Under the pieces are notes generated by a model that was not told the origin of the DNA, ran no database searches, and saw only the letters and a program-made list of their open reading frames with translations. From Rhodothermales bacterium (GTDB lineage Bacteria; Bacteroidota; Rhodothermia; Rhodothermales; Bin80), in contig CATQHT010000001.1 in assembly GCA_958296045.1 (NCBI GenBank), positions 965,395 to 1,029,394 on the forward strand: a stretch of 64,000 nucleotides of DNA. Reading direction: 5' to 3'. The translations under genes and the position numbers were made by a program. Below, one piece after another: positions 1,618 to 22,139 of the stretch; positions within the stretch are counted from its first letter, which is position 1; each line of letters starts with the position of its first letter.

Positions 1618-1852
1618 AACGTCGAGTAGCTCGGAAAAGCGCATCCAAAGCCATGTCCGCAATCGATGCGGACCAGTCGCGACCGGTAGGGTGCAGGCGT
1701 AGACGGAAATTCTCACCTGCGAACGATTCAGTGTGGCGTCTGTCAGTCTTACCATGTGGGCGACATCGAGCAGTGGTAAACCTACCGAATAGGTAACTTG
1801 CGACTTGGGCCTGCCCTGTTGTCTATTACTGTCCAACTGCCAGAGCTGCACC

Positions 1853-3994: not shown

Positions 3995-4157
3995 CACCTA
4001 CCGCAGATCGCATGGCTGAGGCTGCTGGGCTGGCTCTTCGGTGCGGGGTAGAATCGCTTGTTCGTGCGCTGGAACTTCCCGTGGCGGCTGTGCGTTTCTA
4101 ATCGCGCATGTGGTGAGTCTTTTTAACCAGCCCGTCTAACACTTGGACCGCGATACC

Positions 4158-6320
4158 ATGGTACGCTTCACCTTTTCGTTCATTGTACTCTTAGCGGCGC
4201 CAGCCAGTATTGCACTGGGTCAGGCAGGCCCTGCGCTGGGGGATGATTTCATCTTCTTCCGCAACGGCGCCAACGCGTCGCTGCCGCATGTCGCTGGCAA
4301 CCTGGAGGCAGACCCCCAGAATCCCGGCCAGTTTTCTATGCGCTATGACTATGGCGACTGGTCGTACCAGTTCTTTGGTTGGGACGCCGCCGTAGGCGTA
4401 GATATGACGGCCAACCTGAGTGACACTGATTCGCTGTTCCTGATGCTGAAGGTCGACCAGGCCAACACCAACGATAACACGTTCCTCTTGCTCGAGGACA
4501 AGACCAATGGTCAGCCCGATGATTTGCCGATGCGGCTAGTCTGGCGCATTCCGAACATGTATAAAGACGGCAACTGGCATGCGTTGGAGATACCCCTGCC
4601 GCCCGCGTTATGTGCAGATCTGGCCAGCGCTCGCGGAACCCTAGGGCTAGGAGACCACTGGTGGTATGGTGGCAGCTGGTCGAACGCGACGCAGCGCGTA
4701 GGCGACTACGACGACGAGTGCGGAGGCACGACGAACAATCCGCAATACTGGAAAGAATATGAATGGACCAATGTTCATTCGGTCGGAGTCTTCTGGGACC
4801 ACAATGCAGGTGGCGGCAGCATATGGGTGGACGATGTCTATATAGGACGCCAGGGCCTGGATCTCACCGTAGCTGACAACCCGGCGGCGGCGCTTTCTTC
4901 GGCGACGATTACGGCCATGTCGAGTGGTAACATGATATCATGGACGCACGATGCGGCCAGCGGCATCGGTGCATACAAGGTATATGGCACGGCTGTGGTT
5001 GACACCTCCGACCTGACAGGGCTGGACGCGACCATGTTCAATCAATTAGTGGAATTTGGAGCTCTCTCCTTTATGGGGCAAATTGGTGCATCAGCCAGCG
5101 ACCACAGCATAATGCACCACTTCGCATATCTGACGCCTGGCGCTGCGCAATTTAGCTCTTCGATCCCTTTCACATACGTGATAACCACGGTAAGTGAATT
5201 CGGCCTTGAGAACTATGATGGTTATATCGAGTACACTGAGAACGACATGATTGAGGAGGGGCCGTTCATAGGCCAGCTGACCGATGCTCAGACCTCTCTC
5301 CTGTTTACGAGTCTGACGTCTGGTAACGTCTCTGGCGACGGGTTTGGCGACGATTGGCCGGTATTCGAAATCAACATGAATCGTTTCAGCATTGCAGATG
5401 TGCCGACGCCGCCAGACAACGACGCCGACTTATCGGGCAAATTCTGGTTGGGATATTCCGAGGACAACGAGCTGTACTTGTATGCAGAGGTGATGGATGA
5501 CATCGTGGAGCTTCCGACCTCAGAGGATCCCGGAACTGCTCCATGGGAGTATGATGTGATCGAAATGGGGTGGGCCAACTATCAGCCGACAGATCTTTTC
5601 TTCGGGACCCACCACCAGAATATGGTACGCGGCGCAACGGCAGATTACCAGTTCCGTATCGGAGGTAAGGGCGATGGATCCCAGGCCTTTATCTGGGTGG
5701 ATCCGGGTGTTGGCGGTATTCCTACCGAAAGCGCTGCGGAGTTCTCGGTCCTCACCGATGGGAGCGGTACTGCTATCGGCTATGCCATTCTAGCGCTGAT
5801 TCCGCTGGATGGTATTCAGGATCCTGCGACGGGTGACGCGGTGGTGCTACCGCCGTTAGGACAGGAAATCGAGGGTCGCTCCATCGACATCGTGCTGAAT
5901 GACCGCGACAACGGTGCTCGCCAGTCCCAGATTCAATGGACTCTGAAATATATTGCGGATGGCCAGTGGTGGAATACACCGGCCCAGTGGGAGCCGATTT
6001 GGATGCTGGGCAATGACCAGTTTGTACTCAGTGCCGACCTCGAGCTTCCAGACGCATTCGAGTTGCAGCAAAACTATCCGAACCCGTTCAATCCGCAGAC
6101 GAACATCAGCTTCACGTTGCCGTCTGCGGAGCGCGTCACGCTGACGGTGCATGACTTGTTGGGAAGAACGGTGGCGACGGTGCTTAGCAGCCAGACTCTT
6201 GGCTCGGGTCGCCACACCTTCCAGTTTGACGCGCGAGGTCTGTCCTCAGGTATGTACGTGTACCGCCTCCAGGCTGGTGCAAACTTCACTCAGGCGAAGA
6301 GCATGGTGCTCATAAAGTAG
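4158..6320 (+). CDS. secreted surface protein with T9SS C-terminal sorting domain (paralog B)
   Basis: Signal peptide MVRFTFSFIVLLAAPASIALGQ. T9SS CTD NYPNPFNPQTNISFTL...GMYVYRL...MVLIK. It shares long blocks with paralog A (DDLPMRLVW, HWWY.GSWS..TQRVGDYDD.CG.TTNNP, GGGSIWVDDVYIG, VNDRDNG.RQSQ, WWNTPAQWE). Confidence 0.8.
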   Translation: MVRFTFSFIVLLAAPASIALGQAGPALGDDFIFFRNGANASLPHVAGNLEADPQNPGQFSMRYDYGDWSYQFFGWDAAVGVDMTANLSDTDSLFLMLKVDQANTNDNTFLLLEDKTNGQPDDLPMRLVWRIPNMYKDGNWHALEIPLPPALCADLASARGTLGLGDHWWYGGSWSNATQRVGDYDDECGGTTNNPQYWKEYEWTNVHSVGVFWDHNAGGGSIWVDDVYIGRQGLDLTVADNPAAALSSATITAMSSGNMISWTHDAASGIGAYKVYGTAVVDTSDLTGLDATMFNQLVEFGALSFMGQIGASASDHSIMHHFAYLTPGAAQFSSSIPFTYVITTVSEFGLENYDGYIEYTENDMIEEGPFIGQLTDAQTSLLFTSLTSGNVSGDGFGDDWPVFEINMNRFSIADVPTPPDNDADLSGKFWLGYSEDNELYLYAEVMDDIVELPTSEDPGTAPWEYDVIEMGWANYQPTDLFFGTHHQNMVRGATADYQFRIGGKGDGSQAFIWVDPGVGGIPTESAAEFSVLTDGSGTAIGYAILALIPLDGIQDPATGDAVVLPPLGQEIEGRSIDIVLNDRDNGARQSQIQWTLKYIADGQWWNTPAQWEPIWMLGNDQFVLSADLELPDAFELQQNYPNPFNPQTNISFTLPSAERVTLTVHDLLGRTVATVLSSQTLGSGRHTFQFDARGLSSGMYVYRLQAGANFTQAKSMVLIK

Positions 6321-6361
6321 AAGGATCAGGAGCGCGATAAAGCACGGGATACGCTGTACCT

Positions 6362-6402
6362 AAGAGCCCTGTTCATCCGTGGATGGGGCTCTTTGGCGTT
6401 TT
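6362..6402 (+). terminator. putative intrinsic terminator after the T9SS paralog pair
   Basis: An 8-bp stem AAGAGCCC (6362-6369) pairs with GGGCTCTT (6386-6393). An inner CATC/GATG helix extends it, and a T-rich tract TTGGCGTTTT follows. Confidence 0.45.
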
Positions 6403-6703
6403 GGAGCTATGCTGTCATTTAGTGTCCATCCGCAGTCAGGATGTTCTCCGTTCGTTCTCCTGGAACGGTACTGCTTGAAGTCGGTGAGATGCTCATCGTG
6501 CCCACCATGCCTGATGAATACTGTAGGCAACCGTTTCCGTGCCTCGCCCCCTACCCTATTCGGCGAACACATCCAAGGTTGCCGCGTCTCAAGACCAAAT
6601 GGGAGCCCTGGAATTACTGGCGCCAGCCGCAAGAAGTGCGGAGAAGGGATGATATTCGCGGGTGTATCTGATCACAGTTGAAGCAGCAGCAATATTTGTG
6701 CGC

Positions 6704-9694
6704 ATGACAATTCCATCAGTATTCGACGTTTGTCAGCCGCGCGAGGATGTGGTTAAAGCTAGGCTGCGTGAGGCGGACTTTGCCGCTGATCTGGCTCAGG
6801 TACTTCGAGGCAATGGCGGAGGCACGTACAGTGATGCGGGGCGCTTTTTTACGAACACGTATCCTACGGGCGGGTTGCGCAATGTTCTGACCAATGTCTG
6901 TAGCCGCCTAGGCGGCGCGGGGCACCATGTCGCAGCGGTGTTTCGCTTGGACACGACCTATGGCGGCGGGAAGACTCACGCACTCATTGCTCTTGTACAT
7001 GCCGCGAAAGGCATGCAGGGAGTACAGAATGTGCGCGATTTTATTGCGGACCCAGCACTCGTGCCGCGCGCACGAGTCCGCGTAGCTGCTTTCGACGGCG
7101 AAAACGCTGATCCAGCCAATGGCCGCGATATGGGTCAGGGAGTCCGTGCGCATACTCCTTGGGGGGAGTTAGCCATTCAGTTGGATGGGCTGCGTGGTTA
7201 CAGACGAGTCGAACGCAGCGACAAGGGAGGCCATGCCCCGGGTGCCGCGACGATGCGGGAGCTATTCGGTTCTGATCCCACCCTGATTCTCCTAGACGAG
7301 CTTGCTGTTTATGTACGCAAGGTGCAGCGCTTAGGCCAAGCTGCCGATCAGGTTACCGCGTTTCTTACGGCGTTGATCAAGGCGGTCGAAGGCGCGCCCA
7401 AGGCCGCTCTGGTATATACTTTAGCGGTAGGTAAAGACGGAAAAGCGCAGGATGCTTATAAGGAGGAAAACGAGCTTTTGGCGCTGCGCATGGCCGAGCT
7501 TGGCAAGGTGTCGGCACGAGCCGCCACGCTCTTGAATCCTACCAGAGAGGACGAGACGGTGCACGTTCTCAAGCGCCGCCTTTTCAGGTCTGTGGACGAA
7601 GAGTGCGTGGAGAAGGTCGTGGCGGCGTATTACAAAAGGTGGGATGCCAATTTACGGCAGCTGCCGCATAGCCTTTCGCTGGGGAAGGCGAAAGAAACAA
7701 TGCGGGAGACCTATCCTTTTCATCCCGAGTTGCTGAGTACCCTGACCGGAAAATTATCTACTCTAAGCAACTTTCAGCGGGTGCGTGGCATGCTGCGCCT
7801 TTTGGCTGGTACGATCGCACATTTGTGGCAGCAGCGTCCAGCCGATGCCACAGCGATTCATGTGCACCACATTGATGTAGGCTACCACCACATCCGCCAG
7901 GAGCTTACAACAAGGCTGGAGCAGAGTCGCTTTGATCCGGCGATAGATCACGACATCGGAATCAGCGGCACGGATGACGCATTAGCATCGTCGCTCGATC
8001 GCAGGTATCATGCACGTCAGCCGCCTGTGGCATCATATGTGGCGCGCACGATATTTATGCATACGCTGGCGTACCCGGACCGTTTGAGCGGCATTGCCGC
8101 GGACCATCTGATGTACAGCATTATTAGTCCAGGGCTGGATGTGGGTTACGCGGACCAAGCACGCACTCGCTTTACGCAGGAATCCGCATACCTCGATGAT
8201 CGGCCGGGAGTACCGCTGCGCTTTCAGGCCGAGGCCAACCTGAGCCAGATTATTCGGCGCGAAGCTGAACGTGTGGATGATGCGGAGGCCACTGCTCATC
8301 TGCGCGATCTGATCCGGGATACCTACAAGGCGGGGCCATTCAGAGGTGTATGCTTTCCAGGTGGTCCATACGACGTCCCCGACGACGCTTCCAAGAAGCC
8401 AGTGCTAGTGATTCTGCATTATGATGTCGGGGCGGTCGGTAGATCGGTGGAGACGGTTCCTTCCTTTGTTCAGCAGCTATACCAGCAAAAGGGGTCTGGT
8501 GGACAGTTCACCCGTGAGCTTCGCAACAACTTGGTGTTCGTGGTGGCAGATAAGGCGCAAAAGCCTCCGATGCATTGGCAGGTACGCCGCCATTTAGCTT
8601 TGCGCGCTCTCAGGAGTAAGGGGCGAATCAATGACTTTGAGCCGTACCAGCAGGAGAAGATTCGCGAGCTTGAAGGCAAGTCGGGCTTGGAGGCGGCTAC
8701 GGCTATTCAGCATTGCTATCGGCATGTGTTTTACCCGTCAGCTACGCCTTTGGAGCGGGCATCGGTGACGCTGGCGCACACGTCGATCGATCTCCCGTCT
8801 TCATCTGATCGTCCAGGAACCGGGCAGAAGATTGTTGCTCGGACTCTGAAGAATTTGAATAAGTTGCAAGAGGCTGGTGATCCGCCGCAGTCGCCGACAT
8901 TCGTTCGCGACAGGACACAGCTCAAGCTGGATGGCCGGATGACCACGGGAGCGCTGCGCGATGAGTTTCGCCGCAATCCTGTCCTCCCGATGCTGTTAAG
9001 CGAAGGGGTTTTTGAGGACTGCATACGACTGGGCATTAAGGAGGGCATTTTTGTTTATCGTGCGGGCGACCTTGTTGTAGGTCAAGGGGATCCTCCTATT
9101 GTCACTATTGACATAGATGCCCAGGCGGAGGTATTCACCGCTGAAAGCGCCAGGAGGCGGGGATTCTGGCCGCGAGAGGATGTGCCGCCAGAGCCGCCAG
9201 AGCCGCGGCCACCAGGGCCAGGGCCACCTCCAGGACCACCCGTCCGCAAGGCAATGGTTGTGAAGGAAGGCCTCCTGGAGGTTGCCCTCAGGGCTGCTTT
9301 CGAGGATGCACGGCACGAAAAGTTCGAGTCCATATGTAAGCTTACGCTGAACATCTATGACGCTCGAGATGGCTTCGCGTTGATGATGCAGGCGAAGCGC
9401 GTTACCGAGGCAACGCCGTCCATTGCTATCAAGGGTGAGTACGGGACCGACGACGGAAGCGTACTCAAAGTAGAATATGACGGCACTATGAGGGAGGCGG
9501 AACTCATTCGCGAGTTCTTGATGCGCCAGATTCGCTCCGCCAGGGAACACGATTTGCAGGTCACTATTTCGCTCCAATTCGCCAAGGATGTATCAGCAGC
9601 CAAGGATACCGCGGCCCACATTATCAAGAAGCTTACCCCGATCGGCGGGAGCATGGCGGAGGTCAGCGTGGAGCTACACCAGAGAGTGTCGTGA
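6704..9694 (+). CDS. DUF499-type P-loop ATPase (BrxC-like family), defence-associated
   Basis: N-terminus FDVCQPREDV...ADFAADLAQVLRG and P-loop context LDTTYGGGKTHALIALVHAAKG match what I know of DUF499. A Pro-rich linker PPEPPEPRPPGPGPPPGPP sits at ~9185-9245. The stop overlaps the next start (GTGA). ATG 6704 is preferred over the listed 6662 start. Confidence 0.8.
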   Translation: MTIPSVFDVCQPREDVVKARLREADFAADLAQVLRGNGGGTYSDAGRFFTNTYPTGGLRNVLTNVCSRLGGAGHHVAAVFRLDTTYGGGKTHALIALVHAAKGMQGVQNVRDFIADPALVPRARVRVAAFDGENADPANGRDMGQGVRAHTPWGELAIQLDGLRGYRRVERSDKGGHAPGAATMRELFGSDPTLILLDELAVYVRKVQRLGQAADQVTAFLTALIKAVEGAPKAALVYTLAVGKDGKAQDAYKEENELLALRMAELGKVSARAATLLNPTREDETVHVLKRRLFRSVDEECVEKVVAAYYKRWDANLRQLPHSLSLGKAKETMRETYPFHPELLSTLTGKLSTLSNFQRVRGMLRLLAGTIAHLWQQRPADATAIHVHHIDVGYHHIRQELTTRLEQSRFDPAIDHDIGISGTDDALASSLDRRYHARQPPVASYVARTIFMHTLAYPDRLSGIAADHLMYSIISPGLDVGYADQARTRFTQESAYLDDRPGVPLRFQAEANLSQIIRREAERVDDAEATAHLRDLIRDTYKAGPFRGVCFPGGPYDVPDDASKKPVLVILHYDVGAVGRSVETVPSFVQQLYQQKGSGGQFTRELRNNLVFVVADKAQKPPMHWQVRRHLALRALRSKGRINDFEPYQQEKIRELEGKSGLEAATAIQHCYRHVFYPSATPLERASVTLAHTSIDLPSSSDRPGTGQKIVARTLKNLNKLQEAGDPPQSPTFVRDRTQLKLDGRMTTGALRDEFRRNPVLPMLLSEGVFEDCIRLGIKEGIFVYRAGDLVVGQGDPPIVTIDIDAQAEVFTAESARRRGFWPREDVPPEPPEPRPPGPGPPPGPPVRKAMVVKEGLLEVALRAAFEDARHEKFESICKLTLNIYDARDGFALMMQAKRVTEATPSIAIKGEYGTDDGSVLKVEYDGTMREAELIREFLMRQIRSAREHDLQVTISLQFAKDVSAAKDTAAHIIKKLTPIGGSMAEVSVELHQRVS

Positions 9695-10167
9695 TCGAGT
9701 CAACCCCCGCAGAGGAGACCAGAGCGGCGCCGAAATATGAGTTGCGCGTGCACACTGCGGGCACGCGTACATTTGAGGTATGGCAGGTTTCATCACCTGC
9801 CACCCCGCTTATTACGAAGCCCGTGCGTATTGGGCGGCTCAAGGGGCGTAACCTTGATCTGGTAGAGCACCGCATCTTGCGAGCGCTGCAGGACGAAGGG
9901 ATCCGGTTTCAAGTTCAGAAAAAGAGTCGTACCTCGAGGGTTGAGCTATCGGAGCCACTGGCTGTGATGCTGGGGCTCTTGTTCAGGACTCTGGCACCAA
10001 TGCGCAGTCGAGCTAACATAATTGCTGTTACCAAGGGAATCGATACGATGGAGATGGTGGAAGCGGCATACTGGCTTGGGATGGCCATGCACCGCAGTCA
10101 CCCGAGGCGTGTCCTGATGGCGCTACGATGCATACTGACCCCACCAAAGAAGAAGAGAAATGGATGA
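9691..10167 (+). CDS. small hypothetical protein in the position of the accessory (DUF3780-like?) gene of DUF499/DUF1156 loci
   Basis: 158-aa ORF joined to both neighbours by 4-nt overlaps (GTGA 9691-9694, ATGA 10164-10167). It has a basic C-terminus PPKKKRNG. Family not verifiable by eye. Confidence 0.55.
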   Translation: MIESTPAEETRAAPKYELRVHTAGTRTFEVWQVSSPATPLITKPVRIGRLKGRNLDLVEHRILRALQDEGIRFQVQKKSRTSRVELSEPLAVMLGLLFRTLAPMRSRANIIAVTKGIDTMEMVEAAYWLGMAMHRSHPRRVLMALRCILTPPKKKRNG

Positions 10168-13104
10168 ATGAATTTGTCTTGTCCGATACGCGCCTGATTG
10201 AGCGCTGGCTGCCTATTGCAGCCTTGGGTGAGGAATCGGCACGGGAGCGCCGCTCCATGACGGCCCTCCCTCCAACGTACTACCTGCATGTCTGGTGGGC
10301 TCGAAGGCCGCTTGTGGCTTCGCGAGCTGCGCTGTTGGCCTCTGTCCTGCCAGCAGATGCGGATCGCGATCGCTTTATGCACATGCTTGGCATCCACGGT
10401 GATCCGGTCGGGGCGCGCATAAGGATCAACAAGGCTAGGCAGTTGGGCAAGCGATTCAAAGGGCAAGCATATCCGTATCGGCGCGCATTCACGTATGTGC
10501 CGACTGACTCAGATGCCAACTGGGTGTTTGAGAATCTGGGAGTGGAGTTGAGCGACATCTCGGCGCTTGATCCGACGGCAGGCGGTGGGAGCATCCCATT
10601 CGAGGCTAGGAGGTTGGGGATGTCAACGCTTGCTAACGATTTAAACCCGGTATCTGCCCTGATCATGGATGCGACCATCAACTGGCCGCTCAAATACGGC
10701 GATGCCGTGGTGCAGGAGTACAGTAATCTGGCAAATCGGTTCGTGCAGGCTCGAGAAGTACATTTGGCTCCACTGTTCCCGAGTGAGGCACTGGAAGACA
10801 CGATTGCTACCAACTACCTCTGGGCACACACGGTTATCTGTCCCTACTGCTCAGGTCTGGTGCCGCTGTCGCCGAATTGGCGGCTGAATTCCAGCGGAAT
10901 AGGGATTAGGCTAAGGCCGCACTTAGGATCAGGCCCAGGCAGTATGGACCGTGTATGCGCATTTGAGGTAGTGAACAACGAGACCGATCAATCCGCGGGC
11001 ACGGTCAAGCGCGGTGTGGGCACCTGCCCTTTTCCAGACTGCGAGCGCGTAATCAGCGGTAATATAATCAAGAGCCAGGCACAGGCTGGTAGGATGGGCG
11101 AACAGCTTTATGCCGTGATCACCAAGACGCGCATTAGAGTTACGTTGAAGTCGGGACGCCGGGGTAAGGACAAGTGGAAGCGTGGTTTTCGTGCGCCATG
11201 TCCAGAGGATGACAATAGCGCGGCGGTATCAGCTATGCTGGACCAGAAGCTGCCCGAATGGGAGGTGCGCGATATTGTGCCCAGCGAGCGATTTCCGTCT
11301 GATGGTAACGATCTTCGACCGATCACTTACGGCATGCCACTGTGGCGTGATCTCTTTTCCCCCCGTCAGTTGCTTTGCCATGGCACCAGCGTGGAGGTGT
11401 ACCGGGAGATGCTCTCAGCCGATCGCGCCCGGGGCACCCTCAGCGAGCTGCAGGAGGCCGCCTACGGGTACCTAGCCCTTGCCTTGGACAAGCTCTGTTA
11501 CTTCAACTCCCGTATGTGCGTGTGGAATTCGTACAGGAGTGTAATCGGCAACACGTTTGCACGGCACGACATACTCATTCAAGTGGTCCTATGTGGAGAT
11601 GGCCCCGTTGGTCGCCGGGATAGGCTACGACTGGGCTGTTCGTCAGACCGCCAAATGCATCAGGGAGCTGGTGGCCCTCATCCGCCCGAGTAGCAATGGG
11701 TCTCCGACCAGCGGAATGTTCGAGTCCGAGGCAGACGAGTCAAGTCGACTGACACCGGTCATCGTATCGTGTAAGAGTGGCGATAACCTGGACCATGTGG
11801 CAGACGGCAGCATCGACGTAATCGTGATGGACCCGCCCTACTACGACAACGTCATGTATGCGGAGCTTTCGGACTTCTTCTACGTCTGGCTCAAACGCAC
11901 CGCGGGATACGTATATCCCCTGCTCTTTCGCAGGCATCTGACGGACAAGGACAGCGAGGCGGTCGCCAACCCGGCCAGATTCGCTGGCCAGAAAGGCGCC
12001 CGCAAGCTCGCCAGCCAAGACTACCGAGAGCGGATGGCATCCATCTTCGCCGAATGTCACCGTACGCTCAAGGCAGACGGCATCATGACCGTCATGTTTA
12101 CACACAAGGCGAGTGGTGCATGGGATGCGTTGACTCAGGCATTGATGGAGGCGGGCTTCACCATCACCGCTTCTTGGCCGATCAACACAGAGGCAGCCTC
12201 GAGCCTGCACATACGGGACAAGGCGGCGGCTCGCAGCACGATTTTTCTTGTTTGCCGTCTGCGCAAGGCGCAGCAGGATGCCAGGGGGTACTACTGGGAA
12301 GATGTGGAGCCGCGCGTGAGCCAAGCGGTGCGCGACCGAATCAGTGATTTTCGTGAGGCGGGCATCGCAGGAGTGGACCTGTATTTGGCCTCGTTCGGGC
12401 CAGCGCTGGGAGAATTTTCTCGCCACTGGCCACTCAGAAGAGGAACACCCAAGAGTCCGCCACACGGAGATAAGAGCGCTGATGCAGATCCGTACGCAAC
12501 CACGCCGGATGATGCACTTCAAGCCGCCAGGCGCGAGGTAAAGCAGTGGCGCATGGACCAACTGCTGACATTGAAGGGCAAGGAGGAACTGGATTCGCCT
12601 ACGGCTTTCTATGTCCTGGCGTGGGATACCTTCCGGGCACCCAAATTCTCGTACGACGAAGCGCTCTTGCTAGCGCATGCCGTGGGTGCGAATCTGGACC
12701 GCGACGTGAAGGGGCGCACCGCCATTAAGCAAGGTAGCTACCTGGTCCTCCTTGACAGCAGTCAGCGTGCGCGCCGCGGCACGCTCGGGCCGCCTGACGG
12801 CAAGCGCGGCATGATAGACGCAATCCATCACGCCGCCAACGTCGCACGCACCACATCACTGTCCGACGCGAAAGAGCTGCTGCAGAAAGACGTCAACCTG
12901 CTCGAGGAACGCGGCTTTCAGGTCGCGCTGCAGGCAGTGCTGGAGGTGCTGCCGCCGTCAGCCAAATTCACGGGTATAGACCTTAAGGGCGCCCTGAAAT
13001 CGGCTGGCACCGACTTTGAAACGCTGCTTGATCTTGCCCGCCTTTACCTGCCAGAGGTGATACGCCGGCCCAAGCAGCTTAGGATGTTTGATGAAGTGAC
13101 ATGA
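10164..13104 (+). pseudogene. DUF1156-type Zn-ribbon adenine-specific DNA methyltransferase, interrupted by a +1 frameshift (two ORFs 10128-11693 and 11557-13104)
   Basis: N-terminal half: WWARRPLVASRAA (DUF1156 hallmark), AdoMet motif LDPTAGGGSIPFEARRLG, and Cys pairs CPYCSG / CPFPDC. C-terminal half, in another frame: catalytic VIVMDPPYYDN. The two ORFs overlap at 11557-11693. The sequence reads through sensibly (..GNTFARHD|YSFKWSYVEMAP..) if one nt near 11571 is removed. Confidence 0.8.
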
Positions 13105-16100
13105 GCAGGCTCAGAGACACGGAATGGGGGTATCAGTATACACCAGACAGCTGTGACATTATTCAAGAATTCTACGTCCCCGTGCTCAGGCGGGCACAGC
13201 TGTACCAGAGAACTGCTGGGTATTTCAGCGCCAAAGCACTGGCGCTGGCGGCAAGAGGCATCGAAGGACTAATAAAGAAAGACGGGCGCATGCAGCTCAT
13301 TGTCGGCTGTACACTGGAAAAGCGGGAGGTTGAGGCCATCCAGCGCGGCGAAGAGCTGCGCGCCTGCCTAGAGCGACGGGCAATACGGCTGCCACTTAAT
13401 CCCGGTGACAATTCCATGCACGGCGCGCTCGAACTGCTGTCGTGGATGGTGGCAAACCGATACCTCGAAGTCAAGGTCGCCGTGCCCTGTGACAGCCGAC
13501 GCCAGCCCGTGCCCGGCGACTTGTACCACGAAAAGACCGGCATCATCGCCGACAGTTACGGCGACATAATTGGCTGGACCGGGAGCCTCAATGAGACGGC
13601 AGCCGGCTGGGGGCACAACTGGGAGCGCATTAGTGTTTCAATCAGTTGGGAAGGCTGCAGAGAGCGCAAGCGGGTTCGAGAATTCCAGGCTGACTTTGAA
13701 AGGCAGTGGGCTGACCGGACATCTCACCTTCTGGTTATGGACATGCCGGAAGTCATGCGACGGGACCTGATGCGCTTTGAGCCCAAAAGTCACCTGCCTG
13801 ACCGCATCGATCCCAAGAAGACGTTGCGACTAGACCCGCAGGTAATCGCCAACTGGCGCGCAAAGGTTTGGGCATTCATCGGGCGGGCGCCCCGGATGCC
13901 CGCTGGCGGAAAGCACATGGGCGAAGAGACGTGTCCCATCACGCCATGGCCACACCAGAGCCTTGCATTCGGTCGCATGTACGATCACTGGCCCCCAAGA
14001 CTGCTAATCGCCGACGAAGTGGGGCTCGGAAAAACCATCCAGGCTGGACTGCTGCTGCGCCAAGCATGGCTGTCCCGACGCGCCCGCCGAATACTCATCC
14101 TTGCCCCAAAGGCCCTTCTTCGGCAGTGGCAGATTGAGTTGCGGGAAAAGTTCAACCTTAGCTGGCCCATCTACGACGGTTCACACCTGGTCTGGTACGA
14201 TCCACGCGGCGAACAGGCTGGCACAAGAAAGGCCGTCAGTCGCAACTCCTGGCACCAGGAACCCGCCGTGTTGGCATCCAGCCAACTTGTTCGGCGCAAG
14301 GACCGGGCTGAAGAGGTTTGCAACAACGCCACACCTTGGGACCTGATCGTACTTGACGAAGCACATCACGCGCGTCGACGTAGCGCCGGGTCCAAGCAAG
14401 AAGGCCCACCCAACCTGTTACTGGCGCTCATGCAAAAGCTGAAAGAGCGCTGCGAAGGTTTGGTACTACTTACGGCTACACCCATGCAGATAGCGCCTAT
14501 TGAGGTCTGGGACCTGCTCAACCTTCTGGGAATGCCACTTGAATGGAGTGAGGAGAGCTTTCTGAAGTTCTTCCGCAGCGCTAACTCAGATGATCCATCA
14601 CCCGAGTTGCTGATTGGCCTAGCCCCCCTCTTTAGAGCCGTAGAGCGGGAGTTTGGCAAGATGCAGGACGCTAATGCTCATGGTAACCATAAGGTGTCTC
14701 GTATCAGGGTTAGCAGAGTGCAGCGGGCACTGAGAGATACGGCCACCATCCCTACGAAGCGACTGAATGCTAAAGAAAGACAGGTTGCCTTGCAGGTGAT
14801 GTGTGCGAATACGCCGGTGCGCCGACTGATTTCGCGGCACACCAGGAAACTGCTTCGCTCCTATCACAAAGAGGGACGCATAGACTCGCCCATTGCCGAT
14901 CGTCAGGTCGAGGATAACTTTCTGGAGTTATCCAAAGGTGAGTCGCAACTGTATTCCATGGTAGAGCAATACATTCGCAGAGTCTACAAGCGAGCTACCG
15001 GGAAACACCGATCTGTAGTCGGACTGGTGATGGTCATCTACCGGCGCCGCCTCGCAAGCAGCCTTCGAGCGCTGCGCGAGACACTTGCCAAGCGGCAAGC
15101 ATCACTGGAAGCAGGCAAGTACCACGTTGTAGGAGATGATTTGTCTCATGTGGAGAGCGTTACGGAAGATGATCCAGATGGCCCAGACGAACTGGTAGCC
15201 ATGGAACACGATCCACTCCGATTTGAGGAAGTCAGCACCATCCGCGACTTACTGCATCATGTGGACTCCCTGCCTCCAGACACCAAAGCACGCGCGCTAT
15301 GCGCCACAATTACAGCGCTGCGCCAGGAGGATTACGAGCAGGTGATGGTGTTCACGCAGTACACCGATACCATGGACTTTCTGCGAGATGAATTGACCAC
15401 CTCGCTCACCCTGCGCATCATGTGCTTCTCGGGACGAGGAGGCGAAGTCCCTGACTTTGGTGGGTCCTGGCATACCATCAAGCGCGACGAGGCAAAGGAG
15501 AAATTCAGACGCTATGAAGCTGATGTGTTGCTTTGCACCGAGGCGGCCGCTGAGGGACTCAACTTTCAGTTCTGCGGTGCGCTCATCAATTACGACATGC
15601 CGTGGAATCCGATGAAGGTGGAACAGCGTATCGGGCGGATCGATCGTGTCGGACAAAAGCATCAAACAGTCAGAATCGTTAACCTTCTCTACAAGGGCAC
15701 CATTGAGTCCGATGTGTACATTGCACTCCGCTCCCGCATCAAGCTCTTCGAGGACATCGTAGGGCACCTGCAGCCGATCCTGTCAAGGGTTGCCCGCACA
15801 ATCGACAAGAGGGTGCTTGAAGGCGGGAAACCGGACGGTTTTGATGCTGAGGTATTTGCAGAGGAAGCAGAAGACCTACTCGATCTGGAGTCCATGACCG
15901 CTGCTCCTTTGAGCGTGCCCGAGCGTTTACCGTCGCCAGTCACGATGGATGACCTCGACCATATTCTTCGCATGCCCGAGCTGCTGCCAATGGGCTATGA
16001 GGTAAGGCGGCTTGGACCCCGCGAATACGATTTGAAGTATCCTGACGCGGAGCAACGGGTGCGGATTACTACGAATCCCCAGCACTATGAGCAGCATTCG

Positions 16101-16292
16101 GATAATGTGCAATTGTGGTCTCCCGGTAATCTGGCCTTTGACAATGCTGTTCGCGCAACCGAGAGGCCGAATGCTGACCCCACGTTCACCAGTCTGAGTG
16201 ACTTGCTCGAAGCCTACCGGAGCGAAGTATTCAGCACGCCGGCTGCTGGTGTCACGCCAATCGCGAACGGTCTGATTGCATCGACACTTTAG
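13101..16292 (+). CDS. PLD (HKD) nuclease-domain / SNF2-family helicase fusion protein
   Basis: Single HKD motif YHEKTGIIAD...WTGSLNETA in the N-terminal ~200 aa. SNF2 motifs follow: LIADEVGLGKTIQAG (I), LIVLDEAHHARR (II), LLLTATPMQ (III) and VEQRIGRIDRVGQ (VI). The ATGA overlap with the methylase gene is at 13101-13104. Confidence 0.85.
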   Translation: MSRLRDTEWGYQYTPDSCDIIQEFYVPVLRRAQLYQRTAGYFSAKALALAARGIEGLIKKDGRMQLIVGCTLEKREVEAIQRGEELRACLERRAIRLPLNPGDNSMHGALELLSWMVANRYLEVKVAVPCDSRRQPVPGDLYHEKTGIIADSYGDIIGWTGSLNETAAGWGHNWERISVSISWEGCRERKRVREFQADFERQWADRTSHLLVMDMPEVMRRDLMRFEPKSHLPDRIDPKKTLRLDPQVIANWRAKVWAFIGRAPRMPAGGKHMGEETCPITPWPHQSLAFGRMYDHWPPRLLIADEVGLGKTIQAGLLLRQAWLSRRARRILILAPKALLRQWQIELREKFNLSWPIYDGSHLVWYDPRGEQAGTRKAVSRNSWHQEPAVLASSQLVRRKDRAEEVCNNATPWDLIVLDEAHHARRRSAGSKQEGPPNLLLALMQKLKERCEGLVLLTATPMQIAPIEVWDLLNLLGMPLEWSEESFLKFFRSANSDDPSPELLIGLAPLFRAVEREFGKMQDANAHGNHKVSRIRVSRVQRALRDTATIPTKRLNAKERQVALQVMCANTPVRRLISRHTRKLLRSYHKEGRIDSPIADRQVEDNFLELSKGESQLYSMVEQYIRRVYKRATGKHRSVVGLVMVIYRRRLASSLRALRETLAKRQASLEAGKYHVVGDDLSHVESVTEDDPDGPDELVAMEHDPLRFEEVSTIRDLLHHVDSLPPDTKARALCATITALRQEDYEQVMVFTQYTDTMDFLRDELTTSLTLRIMCFSGRGGEVPDFGGSWHTIKRDEAKEKFRRYEADVLLCTEAAAEGLNFQFCGALINYDMPWNPMKVEQRIGRIDRVGQKHQTVRIVNLLYKGTIESDVYIALRSRIKLFEDIVGHLQPILSRVARTIDKRVLEGGKPDGFDAEVFAEEAEDLLDLESMTAAPLSVPERLPSPVTMDDLDHILRMPELLPMGYEVRRLGPREYDLKYPDAEQRVRITTNPQHYEQHSDNVQLWSPGNLAFDNAVRATERPNADPTFTSLSDLLEAYRSEVFSTPAAGVTPIANGLIASTL

Positions 16293-16386: not shown

Positions 16387-17676
16387 ATGATTTCGTTATT
16401 AGCCATTGCCGACGCTCATATCGGGCGTTATCCTTCTAGGGTACCGCGCGATCAGAAGGAATACTCCATCTCGGAAGTCTGGATGGAATCCATCGATTAT
16501 GCCATTGAGCATGGCGTCCATGCCGTTGTGCTTGCAGGCGACATCATCGACACCGCGAACAGGTACTTTGAAGCCTTCGGTCCCCTGCGCAGAGGGGTAA
16601 CCAAGCTCACTAACGCAGGCATCCCCGTATTCGCAGTCGCGGGTAACCATGACTACAATGTGCTGCCCCGCCTAGCCGACGACATGGGCCGAGAACGCTT
16701 CTGCCTCCTCGGGCGCGGTGGTAAATGGGAAACTGTCCCACTACAAGTCGATAGCCAGGTGGTAGCACAGATCGTGGGATGGTCCTTTCCCAGTGAAGAA
16801 TGCCGAACGTCACCGCTGGACACGTTTCCTGGAGTCTCTTCGGAGGAGCCCTTGATCGGCCTAATTCATGGTGACCTGGATGCCAGAGATTCCCATTATG
16901 CACCGCTCGCGCTGCCCGATCTGCAGCGGCAATCTGTAGCTGTGTGGATTCTCGGCCATATACATACATCCAGATACGTTGCCACCGGTGGCGTGCCCGT
17001 CCTGTACCCAGGTTCGCTGCAAGCGCTTGACCCAGGTGAACCTAGTGACCACGGACCATGGTTGGTGGAAATTGATGCGGGTGGGCACGTGGAAGCAAAG
17101 CAATTACCTATAGCCACGGTCCGGTACGTCACGTTAATCATAGATCTGACCGATGTCTCAAGTGAGTCCGAAGCTCAGTCGCTGATCACTGAGAAAGTTA
17201 CACTCGATTCGGATCGCCTCAGCCAGAACTATCCGTCACTGCGCCATGCCTCCTATCGCCTTACCCTGGTGGGTGCAACGCCCGCACACAGGGCGCTGTC
17301 GCTCACGGATTGGGCCAACATTGGATATCTGGATATCGAGCACGGCGACCTCCAAACCTCCGTGGATCGCGTGTTCGTGGAAACTGTGCCAGCCCGCAAC
17401 CTGAAGGACATCGCTCGGTTGAGCGATCCGCCTGCAATGGTCGCCGGATGGGTCCTCGAGTTGGATAACATGCAAGAAGATCTGGATCTCTCCCCCGATT
17501 GCCAAGACCTGCTTCAGCAGGCCACCGAAGAAGCCAACAAGGTCATTTCTCAGTCGAGATACCGGCAGTTGCAGGGGACCTCGATACATAGCAGCGACGT
17601 TGCCCGCCTGCTCGTCTCTAAGGGCAGACTCCTGGTTGACACCCTAATGGCTCAGAAAGACGATTCTCATGAGTAA
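16387..17676 (+). CDS. Mre11/SbcD-like calcineurin-type metallophosphoesterase (YhaO-like)
   Basis: Phosphoesterase motifs in canonical order: IADAHIG, LAGDIID, VAGNHDY, LIHGD, LGHIHT. An 8-nt overlap (ATGAGTAA) joins it to the downstream ATPase gene. Confidence 0.8.
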   Translation: MISLLAIADAHIGRYPSRVPRDQKEYSISEVWMESIDYAIEHGVHAVVLAGDIIDTANRYFEAFGPLRRGVTKLTNAGIPVFAVAGNHDYNVLPRLADDMGRERFCLLGRGGKWETVPLQVDSQVVAQIVGWSFPSEECRTSPLDTFPGVSSEEPLIGLIHGDLDARDSHYAPLALPDLQRQSVAVWILGHIHTSRYVATGGVPVLYPGSLQALDPGEPSDHGPWLVEIDAGGHVEAKQLPIATVRYVTLIIDLTDVSSESEAQSLITEKVTLDSDRLSQNYPSLRHASYRLTLVGATPAHRALSLTDWANIGYLDIEHGDLQTSVDRVFVETVPARNLKDIARLSDPPAMVAGWVLELDNMQEDLDLSPDCQDLLQQATEEANKVISQSRYRQLQGTSIHSSDVARLLVSKGRLLVDTLMAQKDDSHE

Positions 17677-20491
17677 ACGAATTGTATTCAAGAACATCTC
17701 AGTAGACCAGATGTACGGCCGGAGCTTTGGTAGCCTCGAGCTCAAAGCGCTAACAGAACATATCAACGTTGTACATGGAGTCAATGCATCGGGCAAGTCA
17801 ACGCTAGCGCAGGCGCTGCAATGCGTGATGCTGCTGCAAAATGCAAAGGCCATAAAGCCAAACGTAGACGCTACCCTCGAAACAGGCGACGGCCAATTGG
17901 ATGTGGAAGTCAGGAAATCAAGACGCTTTTGCCGCCTGAATGGCGAAGATATCCAGTGGAACCCGGAACTGATAAGGCCCAAGAGCTACCACATTTCGCT
18001 GCACGCCCTGTTGGGCGCCGAAGCGGGTGATAGCTCGTTCGCGGAGGAAATTATGAAGGAAGCCTCTGGAGGATTTGACGTCCGCAAAGCTGCAATGGAG
18101 CTCGCCTTTGAACAGCTCACCAGCAATTTGACCGCCGGGCACAATAGTGCCAAAAGAGTCAAGAACGCCTCCAACCGATTAAAGGAGGTCGACCGGAGAC
18201 AAAAGAAGCTGGCAAGCGACCGGAAACGGCTGGATCGGCTGCATGAAGAGCAACATACTGCTGCGTCAGCTGCGAACCACGTCAGCCTGTTCACTAAAGC
18301 CCTGGCATTTCACGAAGCACGACGCACGCATAAGGATGCTCGCCAAAGTGTCGAGGCCCTCCCCAAAGTGCTGCAAAAGGTTGACGTGGATCAGCTGCCT
18401 GACAAGCTGCAGAAGATTCGCGACGACATAACGCGCTTAGAGGCCGAGATAGCGCAGCGCGAGCGCGCGGCCACAGAGGCCATGCGACACATCAGCGCCA
18501 GTTCACTGCCCGAATCTGGACTGCCCGAGGGCTTCACGGAGAAAGTCAGCAAGGAGATACAGCGACTTGCGGACGTCGACGGCCGGATAGAGACCATAAC
18601 GGAATCTCTGGCGGAATTCAGGAGGAAAGCCGAAAAAGCCTGGCAGGGGCTTTCTGGCGGCGCAGATTCTCAGCAGAATGCTCCACAGTTCAACCGTAAA
18701 TCTGTGGAACGTCTCGGGTCCGTTATTCGCCGAGCATTTGACGCGGCAGCGGAGAAGGCAGCGCTTAGAGCGAAAGAAAAAGCGTTTCAGGTCGAAGGGG
18801 GTGAGGCGCTTGAGCAGACTGAGAAAACACTTCGTAGAGCACTAGAGTCTCTTGTTGATTGGCTTCGCGCACCGACACATACTCTAGGTAGGGGGCGCAT
18901 GGTCCGTGTTGTTTTGGGCATCGCGGCAACATTGTCTCTGGTAAGCGCGTGGCTTGCAGGCGTGGATACCGTGCGCGGGTGGCCAGGGATTGCAGCGGCC
19001 CTGCTTATCGCATTGGCCTACTACCGGCTCAGCATGGGCGAAAGAACGTATATGCGCCAGAAAGCGGAGGTAGAAAGCAAAATTGAGCGTCCAAGTCTGG
19101 ACCTGGAACTTCCAGCCACGTGGACAAACGACACCGTGGGAAAGCTGCTTGACGACGTGCTGGCTCGCCTTGCATCCATCAATGTTGACAAAAAGAAGCT
19201 CGACAGATTGACGTTCCTTACCGAGGATCGCGAATCTAAAGAGCCTGAGTGGCAGCGGGTACAGGAGGAAGTTCGTCGCATCGAGGAAGCAACCGGCCTT
19301 CAGGGACTCTCGGAAGAAACGCTATTTTACGTGATAGAGCGCATTCTCGACTTCCAGCGCGCCAAGGATGAGGTAAGCGGACTAGAAGCAAGACTTGCGA
19401 AAGCGCAGGGAATGCAGACGCGCCATTTGGCCTACATCAATGCTTCCTTAGCACCGTACGGTCTTGCCGAAGTCGATTCACCTGCGGAGGCCGCAGCGGC
19501 ATTGGAAGACCTCCGCACCGCCAGTCAGAAACTGCAGGGCCACCTCAAGGATCTCGCCGGCATTGAGCGTGAGAAAGAAGCCCTAACATCGCAGCGCGCG
19601 CGGCTAATCGCTAAGCGTCAGCAACTCTTTGCAGAGCTCGACCTGGATGACCAGGATCGCGAGTCCCTGAATGTGCTGGTTCGGCAGAACAAAAAACTAC
19701 GCATACGACGCGAAAAGCTGGGCGAGGCGAAGACACTGTTGGATGACAAGGAGCGCGTGCTTCGCCGATCCCCAGGGTATTCTGAGGACCTAAAGCGCGC
19801 GAACACCGCCGAGCTTGAGGCTGAACTGGAAACGTTTACGACTCTGGCCGCCAAGAAAGACGAAATTCAGCGCGAAATCACCGTGATCACCACCCAGGTG
19901 AAATCCTTGGAGGAAGGCAGTGCACTGGAGAAAGCTAAGGCTGAGTTGGATGAGGCACGGGCGAGATTAAGAATGGATCGTGACGCCAAAGTAGCCAATG
20001 CAGTTGGTGGTGTCCTGATCGAACAGCTCCTGACGTACATCCACGGGCAAGGCATGCCGAGGGTCTTCAGGAAGGCCAAGAATAATTTCCTGCTCGTCAC
20101 CAATGGGCGCTATGAGCTGCGCCTTAAAGGAAACGTGTTTCACGCATATGATACCGAACAGCGACGTACTCAGAATATCCAGGAGCTATCTAGTGCAACC
20201 CGCGTGCAGCTGCTGCTTTGTGTGAGGATCGCATTTGTGGAATCCCAGGAAACAGAATACCGGTTTCCGCTAACGCTGGATGAGGCCTTGGCGAATAGCG
20301 ACGATCAACGTGCTAGCACGGTGATAGAAACTATTGCGCGGCTCGCGATGCAGCGACAGGTGATCTACTTCACCGCGCAGGAAGACGAAGTTCAGAAATG
20401 GAAGAATCATGCAGGTGATGTGCCGGTCAAGTTGATTCGGCTGAACGCCTCAACTCCGGGTAGCGGCATATTCGCGGGCGCACAGACGTAG
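17669..20491 (+). CDS. Rad50/SbcC-like SMC-type ATPase with long coiled coils (YhaN-like)
   Basis: Walker A VHGVNASGKSTLAQAL at the N-terminus. About 700 aa of E/K/R/L/A/Q-rich sequence follows. The C-terminal signature-like ELSSATRVQLLL and Walker B PLTLDEALANSD complete a split ABC head. A central hydrophobic hairpin sits at ~aa 411-455. Confidence 0.8.
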   Translation: MSKRIVFKNISVDQMYGRSFGSLELKALTEHINVVHGVNASGKSTLAQALQCVMLLQNAKAIKPNVDATLETGDGQLDVEVRKSRRFCRLNGEDIQWNPELIRPKSYHISLHALLGAEAGDSSFAEEIMKEASGGFDVRKAAMELAFEQLTSNLTAGHNSAKRVKNASNRLKEVDRRQKKLASDRKRLDRLHEEQHTAASAANHVSLFTKALAFHEARRTHKDARQSVEALPKVLQKVDVDQLPDKLQKIRDDITRLEAEIAQRERAATEAMRHISASSLPESGLPEGFTEKVSKEIQRLADVDGRIETITESLAEFRRKAEKAWQGLSGGADSQQNAPQFNRKSVERLGSVIRRAFDAAAEKAALRAKEKAFQVEGGEALEQTEKTLRRALESLVDWLRAPTHTLGRGRMVRVVLGIAATLSLVSAWLAGVDTVRGWPGIAAALLIALAYYRLSMGERTYMRQKAEVESKIERPSLDLELPATWTNDTVGKLLDDVLARLASINVDKKKLDRLTFLTEDRESKEPEWQRVQEEVRRIEEATGLQGLSEETLFYVIERILDFQRAKDEVSGLEARLAKAQGMQTRHLAYINASLAPYGLAEVDSPAEAAAALEDLRTASQKLQGHLKDLAGIEREKEALTSQRARLIAKRQQLFAELDLDDQDRESLNVLVRQNKKLRIRREKLGEAKTLLDDKERVLRRSPGYSEDLKRANTAELEAELETFTTLAAKKDEIQREITVITTQVKSLEEGSALEKAKAELDEARARLRMDRDAKVANAVGGVLIEQLLTYIHGQGMPRVFRKAKNNFLLVTNGRYELRLKGNVFHAYDTEQRRTQNIQELSSATRVQLLLCVRIAFVESQETEYRFPLTLDEALANSDDQRASTVIETIARLAMQRQVIYFTAQEDEVQKWKNHAGDVPVKLIRLNASTPGSGIFAGAQT

Positions 20492-20775: not shown

Positions 20776-21036
20776 ATGACGCTGGTACTCACGCATGTAG
20801 GACTCAAACTGAAGACCATCCCCAACCACCAACACCTGCCCAAGCTCCAAAAGGCGTTTATGGATGCCAGGACCCAAATCCCAGAATCCCCCTCTAGCCC
20901 TCTTTCCACTAATTTTGGCCCACCCCCCGCCATCTTTGACCAACTGGTTCACAATGCGCACCACATTTCACTCAAGGGAGAATCCATGCACAAAACACAC
21001 GCCCTGCGGAGCATCAAACCCTACGACCTGGCATGA
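20776..21036 (+). pseudogene. decayed 3' remnant of an IS21-family istB-like ATPase gene (left copy)
   Basis: ..AIFDQLVHNAHHISLKGESMHK.. resembles the IstB C-terminal consensus (AILDRLvHnahri.LkGeSmRk). It is homologous to the better-preserved inverted copy at 22889-23280. Confidence 0.55.
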
Positions 21037-21137
21037 CACATACACATGTGTGCATAAGCCGATTTCGTGCCCCTGGCGCAAGACTTAGGGTGGCGCGCTT
21101 GAAGCCAGAATTGGTGGCGCAGTGGAGCGGAATAGGC
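20934..21137 (+). repeat. left arm of ~205-bp inverted repeat (IS end remnant)
   Basis: Aligns by eye at roughly 75-80% identity with the reverse complement of 22785-22990. Example: GCGCTTGAAGCCAGAATTGGTGGCGC versus GCGCTTGAAGCTGGAATTGGTGGCGC. Confidence 0.75.
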
Positions 21138-21242
21138 AGCGAGTACCTGCCAGTGAAGTTTGAGGTGGCCAACAGCAGAATTCCTTCAAAGCTGGCCCGA
21201 ATCTGGGACAACGCCGAGACGAACACATACCGGATTATCGAG

Positions 21243-22139
21243 ATGGACACACTGCCCTTAATCGCAGCCATGCAACTCGAAGGAGTCGGACCCAAGAAGT
21301 TGCTCAACGTTGTAGATGACTTGAGTGACGGGAAAAGTCAGTTCGCTAAAGTGGCCAATAGGCATTGGAGATGTTCCGTATATGCGGCTGACAGAGCTTG
21401 GGAACAGGCGCAGCGACTCTTGGAGATGTGCGAAAAACGAGATATCCTGCCGATAGCCTTTTCGAACCAAGACCAGTACCCTGAGCGGTTGCATGTGCTT
21501 CGGGTAGCGAATGGCAAAAATGGTGCCCGCGACGATAGACCGCCCGTCGTGTACGTCAAAGGGAACATTGATGCTGTGCACCGACCGAAACCCGTTGTGG
21601 CTATCGTGGGCACTAGGAAACCCACAGACCGGGGACATCGAAGTGCCTTTAAGCTTGGAAGAATCGCAGCCACTTATGGCGTGCCCGTCGTAAGCGGACT
21701 AGCGTACGGGTGTGATCAGCGCGCGCACGAAGGCTGTATAGAAAACAAAGGCACTGCCATAGCCGTGCTTGCACATGGGCTGGACACAATTTATCCGTCT
21801 AAAAACAAAGGGCTTGCTAAGGCAATTCTAGACATGGGGGGCTGCTGGATCAGCGAATTCCCCCCAGGAACGCCTGTGCAGAAGTGGAGCTTCGTGCAAC
21901 GCGACCGGCTTCAGAGTGCGCTTTCTGACGTTGTAGTTATCGCTCAGACCGGCGTTAAGGGTGGAACGCAACACACGATTCGCTTTGCCAGAGAGCAGGG
22001 AAGGCAGCTCGCCTGTGTTGTGCCCGAAGCAGAGGCTAACCATAGAGTCGAAGAAGGCAATCGTAAACTGCTGCAGGACAAGAACGTCGAGCGGCTGGCT
22101 GTGCCCCGAGACTTGAAACGAATGCTGGACAGGCTTTAG
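21243..22139 (+). CDS. DprA/Smf-like (SLOG/Rossmann) DNA-processing protein family member
   Basis: Core VAIVGTRKPTDRGHRSAFKLGRIAATYGVPVVSGLAYGCDQRAHEGCI and AVLAHGLDTIYPSKN match DprA blocks. An N-terminal HhH-like LIAAMQLEGVGPKKLLNVV is present. The listed start at 21033 lies inside the IS-derived repeat, so ATG 21243 (or GTG 21153) is preferred. Confidence 0.75.
   Translation: MDTLPLIAAMQLEGVGPKKLLNVVDDLSDGKSQFAKVANRHWRCSVYAADRAWEQAQRLLEMCEKRDILPIAFSNQDQYPERLHVLRVANGKNGARDDRPPVVYVKGNIDAVHRPKPVVAIVGTRKPTDRGHRSAFKLGRIAATYGVPVVSGLAYGCDQRAHEGCIENKGTAIAVLAHGLDTIYPSKNKGLAKAILDMGGCWISEFPPGTPVQKWSFVQRDRLQSALSDVVVIAQTGVKGGTQHTIRFAREQGRQLACVVPEAEANHRVEEGNRKLLQDKNVERLAVPRDLKRMLDRL

Follow-up and report, generated by a model that had tools for sequence, protein, structure and literature searches.

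A probable DUF499-centred BREX-related defence operon with DUF7680 in the DUF3780 slot and a disrupted methylase gene in a Rhodothermales bacterium

We analysed a 64,000-nucleotide stretch of DNA from a Rhodothermales bacterium (assembly GCA_958296045.1, contig CATQHT010000001.1, positions 965,395 to 1,029,394 of the forward strand; hereafter the window), in which four co-directional genes on the + strand between positions 6704 and 16292 form a compact operon. It is likely, in our judgement, that this locus is a DUF499-centred, BREX-related (BR) and restriction-modification (R-M)-like anti-phage operon of the HKD-helicase kind (the 'Type-2 BR' architecture), from a lineage in which a small protein of the family DUF7680 stands in for DUF3780. 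The locus is a real and ordinary defence locus, a variant of a family that has already been described and is annotated in databases. The methylase gene is interrupted by an extra base, and the system in the window is either inactive or mis-sequenced at that base. The features of the operon are as follows, with phospholipase D abbreviated to PLD.

6321 to 6703, + strand: upstream intergenic region, presumed to hold the operon promoter (none identified)
6704 to 9694, + strand: DUF499 AAA+ ATPase (ORC/Cdc6-like, BrxC-related), 996 aa, called from Pfam, PADLOC and motifs
9691 to 10167, + strand: DUF7680 small basic protein, 158 aa, pI 11 (Pfam PF24728, E = 9.5e-37)
10164 to 11693, + strand: N-terminal fragment of the methylase (DUF1156, E = 6.7e-15; PADLOC HmaB, E = 1.7e-34)
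about 11571, + strand: 1-nt insertion (+1 frameshift), located by a tblastn frame switch at HD/YSFKW
11572 to 13104, + strand: C-terminal fragment of the methylase in the +1 frame (N6_N4_Mtase, E = 4.4e-5; PADLOC HmaB, E = 1.2e-36)
13101 to 16292, + strand: PLD-SNF2 effector, 1063 aa, called from Pfam, NCBIfam, PADLOC and motifs

The genes are chained by 4-nt GTGA/ATGA overlaps. A preliminary description of the operon, made from the letters alone, had placed these start/stop overlaps at 9691-9694 (GTGA), 10164-10167 (ATGA) and 13101-13104 (ATGA), and all three match the DNA exactly; the first joins the ATPase stop to the DUF7680 start and the last the methylase stop to the effector start. The same description had read the operon as four open reading frames. 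This held for the ATPase, the small protein and the PLD-SNF2 protein, but the third frame is not a single one because of the frameshift, and the + strand frames between 6.7 and 16.3 kb are 6662/6704-9694, 9691-10167, 10128/10164-11693, 11557-13104 and 13101-16292. The break had been hinted at only by the words 'repaired operon', which understated the damage. Every peptide motif quoted earlier was found in the translations (TYGGGKTHALIAL, FDVCQPRED, FAADL, WWARRPL, LDPTAGGGSIPFEA and MDPPYYDN), as were the two Cys pairs of the methylase (CPYC and CPFPDC), the HEKTGIIAD...GSLNET signature of the fourth frame and its complete set of SNF2 motifs (GLGKT, DEAH, TATP and QRIGRIDR). Apart from the frameshift, the catalytic motifs are all intact. 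We scanned one genome per species for related operons and compared 80 related loci. The junction between the ATPase gene and the small gene measures -4 to +1 nt in 61 of the 78 related loci in which it was scored, a family trait that makes the tight coupling more than chance. Scans of 6321-6703 for sigma-70 promoters and terminators gave nothing above shuffled expectation, with a tool that lacks Bacteroidota-type promoters, and the GC content of the module is not distinct from that of its flanks.

Hidden Markov model searches backed the domain calls of the preliminary description (DUF499, DUF1156 and PLD-SNF2). The ATPase matches Pfam DUF499 (E = 3.3e-36) and, in PADLOC, HmaC (E = 3.2e-92), DUF499 (E = 1.7e-42) and weakly BrxC (E = 3e-4). 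It has a GGGKT Walker A and an LLDE Walker B motif and a Pro-rich linker ahead of its C-terminal domain, and an entry identical to the 996-aa product is present in the protein collection. What had been left as an undefined 'small ORF' turned out to belong to a defined Pfam family, DUF7680. In the methylase, the N-terminal fragment holds the DUF1156 helical domain, the S-adenosylmethionine-binding motif I DPTAGGGS and a target-recognition insert with the Zn-binding pairs CPYC/CPFPDC, while the other fragment contributes motif IV (DPPY, catalytic) together with the C-terminal region. ARAGORN also called a 98-nt 'tRNA-Ala(cgc)' at 10285-10382 (+) inside the methylase coding sequence, which is almost certainly a false positive. 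In the effector, a single-HKD nuclease of the PLD family at the N-terminus is joined to a Swi2/Snf2 helicase with a C-terminal extension. Its HKD motif HxK(x)4D...GSxN occupies residues 143-166, within a PLDc_2 match to residues 124-203; further Pfam matches are SNF2-rel_dom (E = 7e-19), Helicase_C (E = 1e-18) and ResIII. NCBIfam phospholipD_antiphage matches residues 19-895 (E = 7e-104), and the PADLOC matches comprise PbeA (over the N-terminal 430 residues), PLD_Helicase, BrxHI/II, DrmD and HmaA. The closest solved structures to the effector are RapA and other SNF2 ATPases including eukaryotic SNF2 remodellers. Sequence searches of the PDB gave no related structure for the ATPase or for DUF7680, and for the latter a search by fold gave no PDB match either.

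This set of genes is neither unnamed nor unsettled, and it corresponds to a published architecture. DUF499-centred BR systems of R-M-like type have been defined by Rakesh & Krishnan (Nucleic Acids Res 2026, PMC12839542), who distinguish a Type-1 BR, which is the Hma system of PADLOC and whose helicase carries a TUDOR domain and, C-terminally, a PD-(D/E)XK nuclease, a Type-2 BR, in which an HKD endonuclease at the helicase N-terminus replaces the Type-1 TUDOR domain and C-terminal restriction endonuclease, and a Type-3 BR with PglZ and an inactive STAND protein. The published Type-2 order and domains are DUF499, a small alpha+beta protein, a DUF1156 methylase and an HKD-Swi2/Snf2 protein, with a standalone DUF3780 (IPR024220) protein in 98% of taxa (PMC12839542). 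The window contains the DUF499 ATPase, the DUF1156 methylase with a Zn-finger insert and the Swi2/Snf2 protein with an N-terminal HKD nuclease, shares its four-gene order with archetype loci on a Methylocystis heyeri plasmid (L088) and in an Acinetobacter baumannii Tn7-like element (L091), and its three large proteins are homologous to those of the archetype over most of their length. In the NCBI PGAP annotation the archetype gene set is named 'anti-phage-associated DUF499 / DUF3780 / DUF1156' together with 'phospholipase D-like domain-containing anti-phage protein'. The link to 'anti-phage-associated' genes suggested earlier is right, and L088 and L091, which have the same gene order, carry these annotations.

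The resemblance has clear limits. The small protein of the window is DUF7680 and not the DUF3780 by which the published type is recognized, and its large proteins share only 27%, 23% and 24% identity with those of the archetype. They score far below the NCBIfam equivalog cutoffs (NF042962/3/4): 209 bits against a cutoff of 1200 for the ATPase (DUF499_antiphage), 127 + 93 bits against 1000 for the methylase and 349 bits against 1100 for the effector, which is also about 140 aa longer at its C-terminus than its archetype counterpart. In small samples, the ATPase and methylase of the window lineage are nearer to Type-1/Hma than to the DUF3780 archetype, whereas its effector is nearer to the archetype PLD helicase. 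The text supplements of PMC12839542 (locus table excluded) contain no accession or motif of DUF7680-type loci. As an observation on the archetype itself, the DUF3780-type system L091, on the A. baumannii plasmid pSSMA17_1, lies directly 3' of Tn7-like genes (TnsD, TnsE, a Mu transposase C-terminal domain-containing protein and an AAA family ATPase) and is apparently transposon cargo.

Hma, a PADLOC system (Payne et al. 2021, PMC8565338) whose HmaA was tested in Halomonas meridiana (PMC11232893), had been named as a possible relative, and the matches of the window ATPase to HmaC and of both methylase fragments to HmaB confirm the relationship. Hma and the window further share an SNF2 helicase-nuclease effector, and relatives of the window operon, like Hma operons, have defence systems such as Septu embedded in them. 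The Hma nuclease is however a C-terminal PD-(D/E)XK domain (NOV_C), whereas that of the window is an N-terminal HKD/PLD domain, and Pfam and PADLOC scans detected no PD-(D/E)XK domain in the window effector. Hma has three genes and no small fourth one, in contrast to the window with its added DUF7680 gene, and the one Type-1 locus we compared (L090, on a plasmid of Methylomonas DH-1) has the order helicase-methylase-ATPase instead of ATPase-small protein-methylase-helicase.

Other methylation-linked systems share parts of the operon. The ATPase, methylase and helicase of the window are homologs of BrxC, PglXI and BrxHII of Type 3 BREX (BrxC, PglXI, BrxHII, PglZ, BrxA and BrxF), an argument also made in PMC12839542; besides the BrxC match, PADLOC reported PglXI (E = 1.5e-17) and BrxHI/II (E = 2e-77). 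The window differs in having a dedicated HKD nuclease fused to the helicase and in lacking PglZ, BrxA and BrxB/F. We rejected BREX proper, as Pfam and PADLOC gave no match to PglZ, BrxA, BrxB or BrxL within 4-26 kb. Class 1 DISARM (DrmA, DrmB, DrmC-PLD, DrmD-SNF2 and DrmMI) similarly combines an SNF2 helicase (DrmD, E = 1e-67), a PLD nuclease and an adenine methylase in one locus, but the window has neither DrmA nor DrmB (DUF1998), its PLD and SNF2 parts are fused and it contains a DUF499 ATPase. DISARM was rejected on the lack of a DUF1998 gene, the only similarity being that of the effector to the SNF2 proteins DrmD and DrmA. The suggested likeness to MADS did not hold up: mad2 matched the methylase at E = 6.6e-5, the mad3 and mad8 matches were generic and fell only on an unrelated SbcC-like neighbour, and the multi-gene mad1-8 set was not found by PADLOC. 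Finally, a preprint of September 2026 entitled 'Dual ATPase-activated DNA hemimethylation and cleavage by the MANTIS defence system' (bioRxiv 10.64898/2026.09.23.753747) concerns a 'widely distributed BREX-related' system that is based on methylation and has two ATPases. Its term counts include DUF499 (2), AAA+ (13), PLD (6), HKD (1) and helicase-nuclease (3), it also mentions Type III and cites Rakesh, and DUF1156, DUF3780, DUF7680, SNF2/Swi2 and Hma are absent from the terms counted. Judged by the title, the start of the abstract and these counts, the preprint probably gives a mechanism for the superfamily, and its title and counts are in keeping with the scheme proposed below for the window operon.

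The small protein distinguishes the lineage. A protein search retrieved 2516 DUF7680 homologs at E<=1e-3, and a profile search yielded 564 clusters at 50% identity, the best 150 of which are all DUF7680. The family is basic throughout (median pI 11.07), and its median identity to the window protein is 54%, similar to the 50%, 61% and 52% of the three large proteins. Because DUF7680 is conserved like the enzymes and is very basic, it more probably serves the ATPase as a DNA-binding or adaptor subunit than acts as a phage sensor that evolves quickly. In sequence comparison we found no relation to DUF3780: the window protein has no match to PF12635 (DUF3780) at E<=10, and alignment of the two profiles with hhalign gave a probability of 0.2%, with no relation detected in any of the local, mact 0 and global modes. 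The AlphaFold2 (AF2) model of DUF7680 (predicted local distance difference test score 87, predicted template modelling score 0.81) has the element order b-b-b-a-b-a-a-a-a, and that of DUF3780 (80 and 0.72, respectively) has the same order with one extra helix. DUF3780 has been described as a four-stranded sheet backed by five helices (PMC12839542), with which the predicted element order agrees. Judged by the element order of the AF2 models, DUF7680 and DUF3780 may well share a fold. The searchable literature contains no mention of 'DUF7680' or 'PF24728'.

DUF7680-type loci were found in 529 species-level genomes, in Rhodothermales, Gemmatimonadota, Acidobacteriota, Latescibacterota, Binatia, Verrucomicrobiota and Alpha- and Gammaproteobacteria, and the same lineage occurs on plasmids of Sinorhizobium, Aminobacter, Rhodococcus, cyanobacteria and haloarchaea. 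The closest locus, in a Rhodothermales metagenome-assembled genome (MAG; 55-65% identity), has the same compact four genes and is flanked by transposases and haem-biosynthesis genes. Such variation in genomic context is as expected for a mobile defence module. In all 80 loci compared the ATPase gene is next to the DUF7680 gene, and the methylase gene is likewise next to the PLD-SNF2 gene. Between DUF7680 and the methylase the spacing varies from an overlap to nearly 10 kb, and a few loci have the methylase/effector pair upstream, on the opposite strand. Cargo occupied this junction in 46 of 62 loci (L005-L082), with a length of 0.7-9.8 kb and almost always on the operon strand, and comprised NsnA/B/C (Menshen), Septu PtuA/PtuB, GmrSD-like (GmrSD_N), TIR, MBL-fold and AAA+PD-(D/E)XK proteins. 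This mirrors Hma, in which 66.5% of operons have inserted defence genes (PMC11232893). The window operon is the compact, cargo-free form with an empty slot between the two gene pairs. Two further features of the relatives were noted in passing. Small toxin-antitoxin pairs (PIN/VapC with an antitoxin) sit inside operons on cyanobacterial plasmids (L092 and L084) and a Deinococcus plasmid (L087), either at the small-protein/methylase junction or between methylase and helicase. Some genomes carry two DUF7680-type copies (L022/L048 on contig CAXXVU020000002.1, L045/L063 on OZ240210.1, and L062/L064), several of them fragmentary or frame-broken.

The disruption of the methylase was analysed at the nucleotide level. 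Translation from 10164 stops at 11693, and the half containing DPPY lies in the +1 frame at 11557/11572-13104. When the intact methylase of the nearest related locus (L001, 948 aa) was aligned by tblastn, its residues 1-439 matched the original frame and the C-terminal fragment was 65% identical to its residues 439-947. The DNA at the site reads CAC GAC [A] TAC TCA where ..ARHD/YSFKW.. is expected, and deletion of the extra base restores an uninterrupted methylase of 979 aa. The insertion site lies outside any homopolymer or repeat. Because the other genes checked in the window (TsaE, TsaB, TsaD, a sulfatase, an FGGY kinase and a symporter) match their Pfam models over the full length, the lesion is not part of a general error pattern. 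Frame breaks also occur among the 80 related loci, in about nine methylase, seven ATPase and three helicase genes, at scattered positions. Owing to the frameshift, the function of the system in the source genome is doubtful.

Two explanations of the lesion carry equal weight in our view. It has close to an even chance of being genuine, in which case the operon would be a recently inactivated remnant that has lost both modification and restriction while its other three genes have yet to decay. The position of the extra base away from any homopolymer, the full length of the other genes and the breaks in relatives agree with this, but it is a single lesion, the three other genes (ATPase, DUF7680 and PLD-SNF2) show no damage in about 2200 codons and keep every motif, and many of the frame-broken relatives are long-read MAGs, where such breaks are often artefacts. 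Just as probably, and again a little short of an even chance, the extra base is a sequencing or assembly error and the organism has an intact, functional four-gene system. With one base removed, the gene encodes 979 aa and matches the nearest intact homolog along its whole length at 65% identity. The source, one large contig whose proteins are singletons, is probably a MAG, and a broken methylase beside an intact nuclease is an unstable state for an R-M-like system. Against an error, the site is not a homopolymer and the neighbouring genes are without such errors. That the methylase is split on purpose, by programmed frameshifting or as two polypeptides, is very improbable. A TTG at 11557 does open the downstream frame, but homologs are one continuous protein and breaks in other loci lie at unrelated positions. 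We rejected programmed frameshifting because the site has no slippery sequence and, as the breaks in relatives are scattered over all three large genes, they also argue against it.

Two proteins with secretion signals lie upstream of the operon, and a group of genes on the same strand lies downstream of it.

1805 to 3994 and 4143 to 6320, + strand: two proteins of about 725 aa with type IX secretion system C-terminal sorting domains (Por_Secre_tail)
16387 to 17676, + strand: SbcD/Mre11-like metallophosphatase, directly 3' of the operon
17669 to 20491, + strand: SMC/Rad50/SbcC-like ATPase of 940 aa, overlapping the SbcD-like gene by 8 nt
21033 to 22139, + strand: DprA-family protein (PADLOC ShosA, E = 1.5e-67; TIGR00732 dprA, 172 bits, just under the cutoff)

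The sorting domains, together with the Rhodothermales origin of the closest locus, suggest that the source organism is Bacteroidota/Rhodothermota-like. A HAD hydrolase and a PhoD-like protein also follow downstream on the same strand. The SbcD/SbcC-like pair gave weak PADLOC matches to mad3, JetC and AriA, and it may be either housekeeping SbcCD or a defence pair of its own. No phosphoribosyltransferase (ShosT) partner was found beside the DprA-family gene, which is probably the housekeeping dprA. With these neighbours, the module could be imagined as a housekeeping operon for DNA repair or chromatin remodelling instead of a defence system, since it stands directly upstream of the SbcD-like/SbcC-like pair and DprA on the same strand. 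We consider this highly unlikely, as none of the 80 related loci has these neighbours, the genomic surroundings differ between loci, with plasmids and transposases among them, relatives carry embedded defence cargo and the distribution across phyla is patchy. The SbcCD-like, DprA/'ShosA', HAD and PhoD proteins were likewise rejected as parts of the system, being absent beside it in 80 of 80 loci.

How might the defence operon work? The preliminary description had proposed methylation as a self-mark and a translocating PLD nuclease as effector, in agreement with the literature, where the BR family is proposed to be R-M-like with a methylase that protects self DNA and a helicase-nuclease that restricts invaders (PMC12839542). 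In such a scheme, the DUF1156 N6-adenine methylase would read a short motif via its Zn-ribbon target-recognition insert and mark the host DNA. The DUF499 ATPase and the translationally coupled, very basic DUF7680 protein, made in a fixed ratio, may load onto or scan DNA and license the methylase-nuclease pair. At an unmethylated motif the SNF2 motor would then translocate along the DNA. Single-HKD nucleases dimerise, as in Nuc/BfiI-type PLD nucleases, and one active site would require the single HKD domains of two effector copies, so that cleavage should need two converging SNF2 motors and would occur when two effectors meet. The system is built from two coupled gene pairs, ATPase with DUF7680 and methylase with nuclease-helicase, and in relatives the slot between them often hosts other defence systems. 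In Type I and Type III R-M and in BREX, cleavage relies on the methylase subunit for target recognition. If the lesion in the window is real, the cell most likely survives because cleavage needs the methylase subunit for target recognition; a methylase-null allele would be tolerated provided that it is the methylase which recognizes the target for cleavage.

Several points weigh against a working R-M-like defence operon in the window. Its methylase is frameshifted, and two of the Pfam matches, N6_N4_Mtase (E = 4.4e-5) and PLDc_2 (E = 1.5e-4), lie below the gathering cutoffs. The roles given here to the ATPase and DUF7680 are inferred only. In the Hma system, protection of E. coli against T4 by the helicase-nuclease HmaA alone speaks for defence, but over-expressed HmaA defended without need of HmaB and HmaC, and HmaB gave no R-M-like protection of T4 (PMC11232893), so that the R-M logic is unproven even for this sister system.

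Taken together our results point to an annotation of the locus as a DUF499-centred BREX-related (Type-2-BR-like) defence operon with a disrupted methylase, and not as a new system. It is possible, although we regard it with some doubt, that the DUF7680 loci represent a third, undescribed lineage of DUF499-centred BR systems, which would combine an ATPase and methylase near to those of Type-1/Hma with a Type-2 HKD nuclease, a small basic partner of DUF3780-like predicted topology and a docking slot for defence systems between two gene pairs, and in which a methylase-null allele would be tolerated since cleavage would be methylase-dependent. For the family, DUF7680 emerges as an obligate partner of the ATPase in a widespread lineage, occupying the DUF3780 slot; definitions that require DUF3780, as well as the NCBIfam equivalog cutoffs, miss this lineage for that reason. 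The family can be seen as two tightly coupled gene pairs with a cargo slot between them, and a natural methylase-broken allele beside an intact nuclease offers a simple test of whether restriction depends on the methylase.

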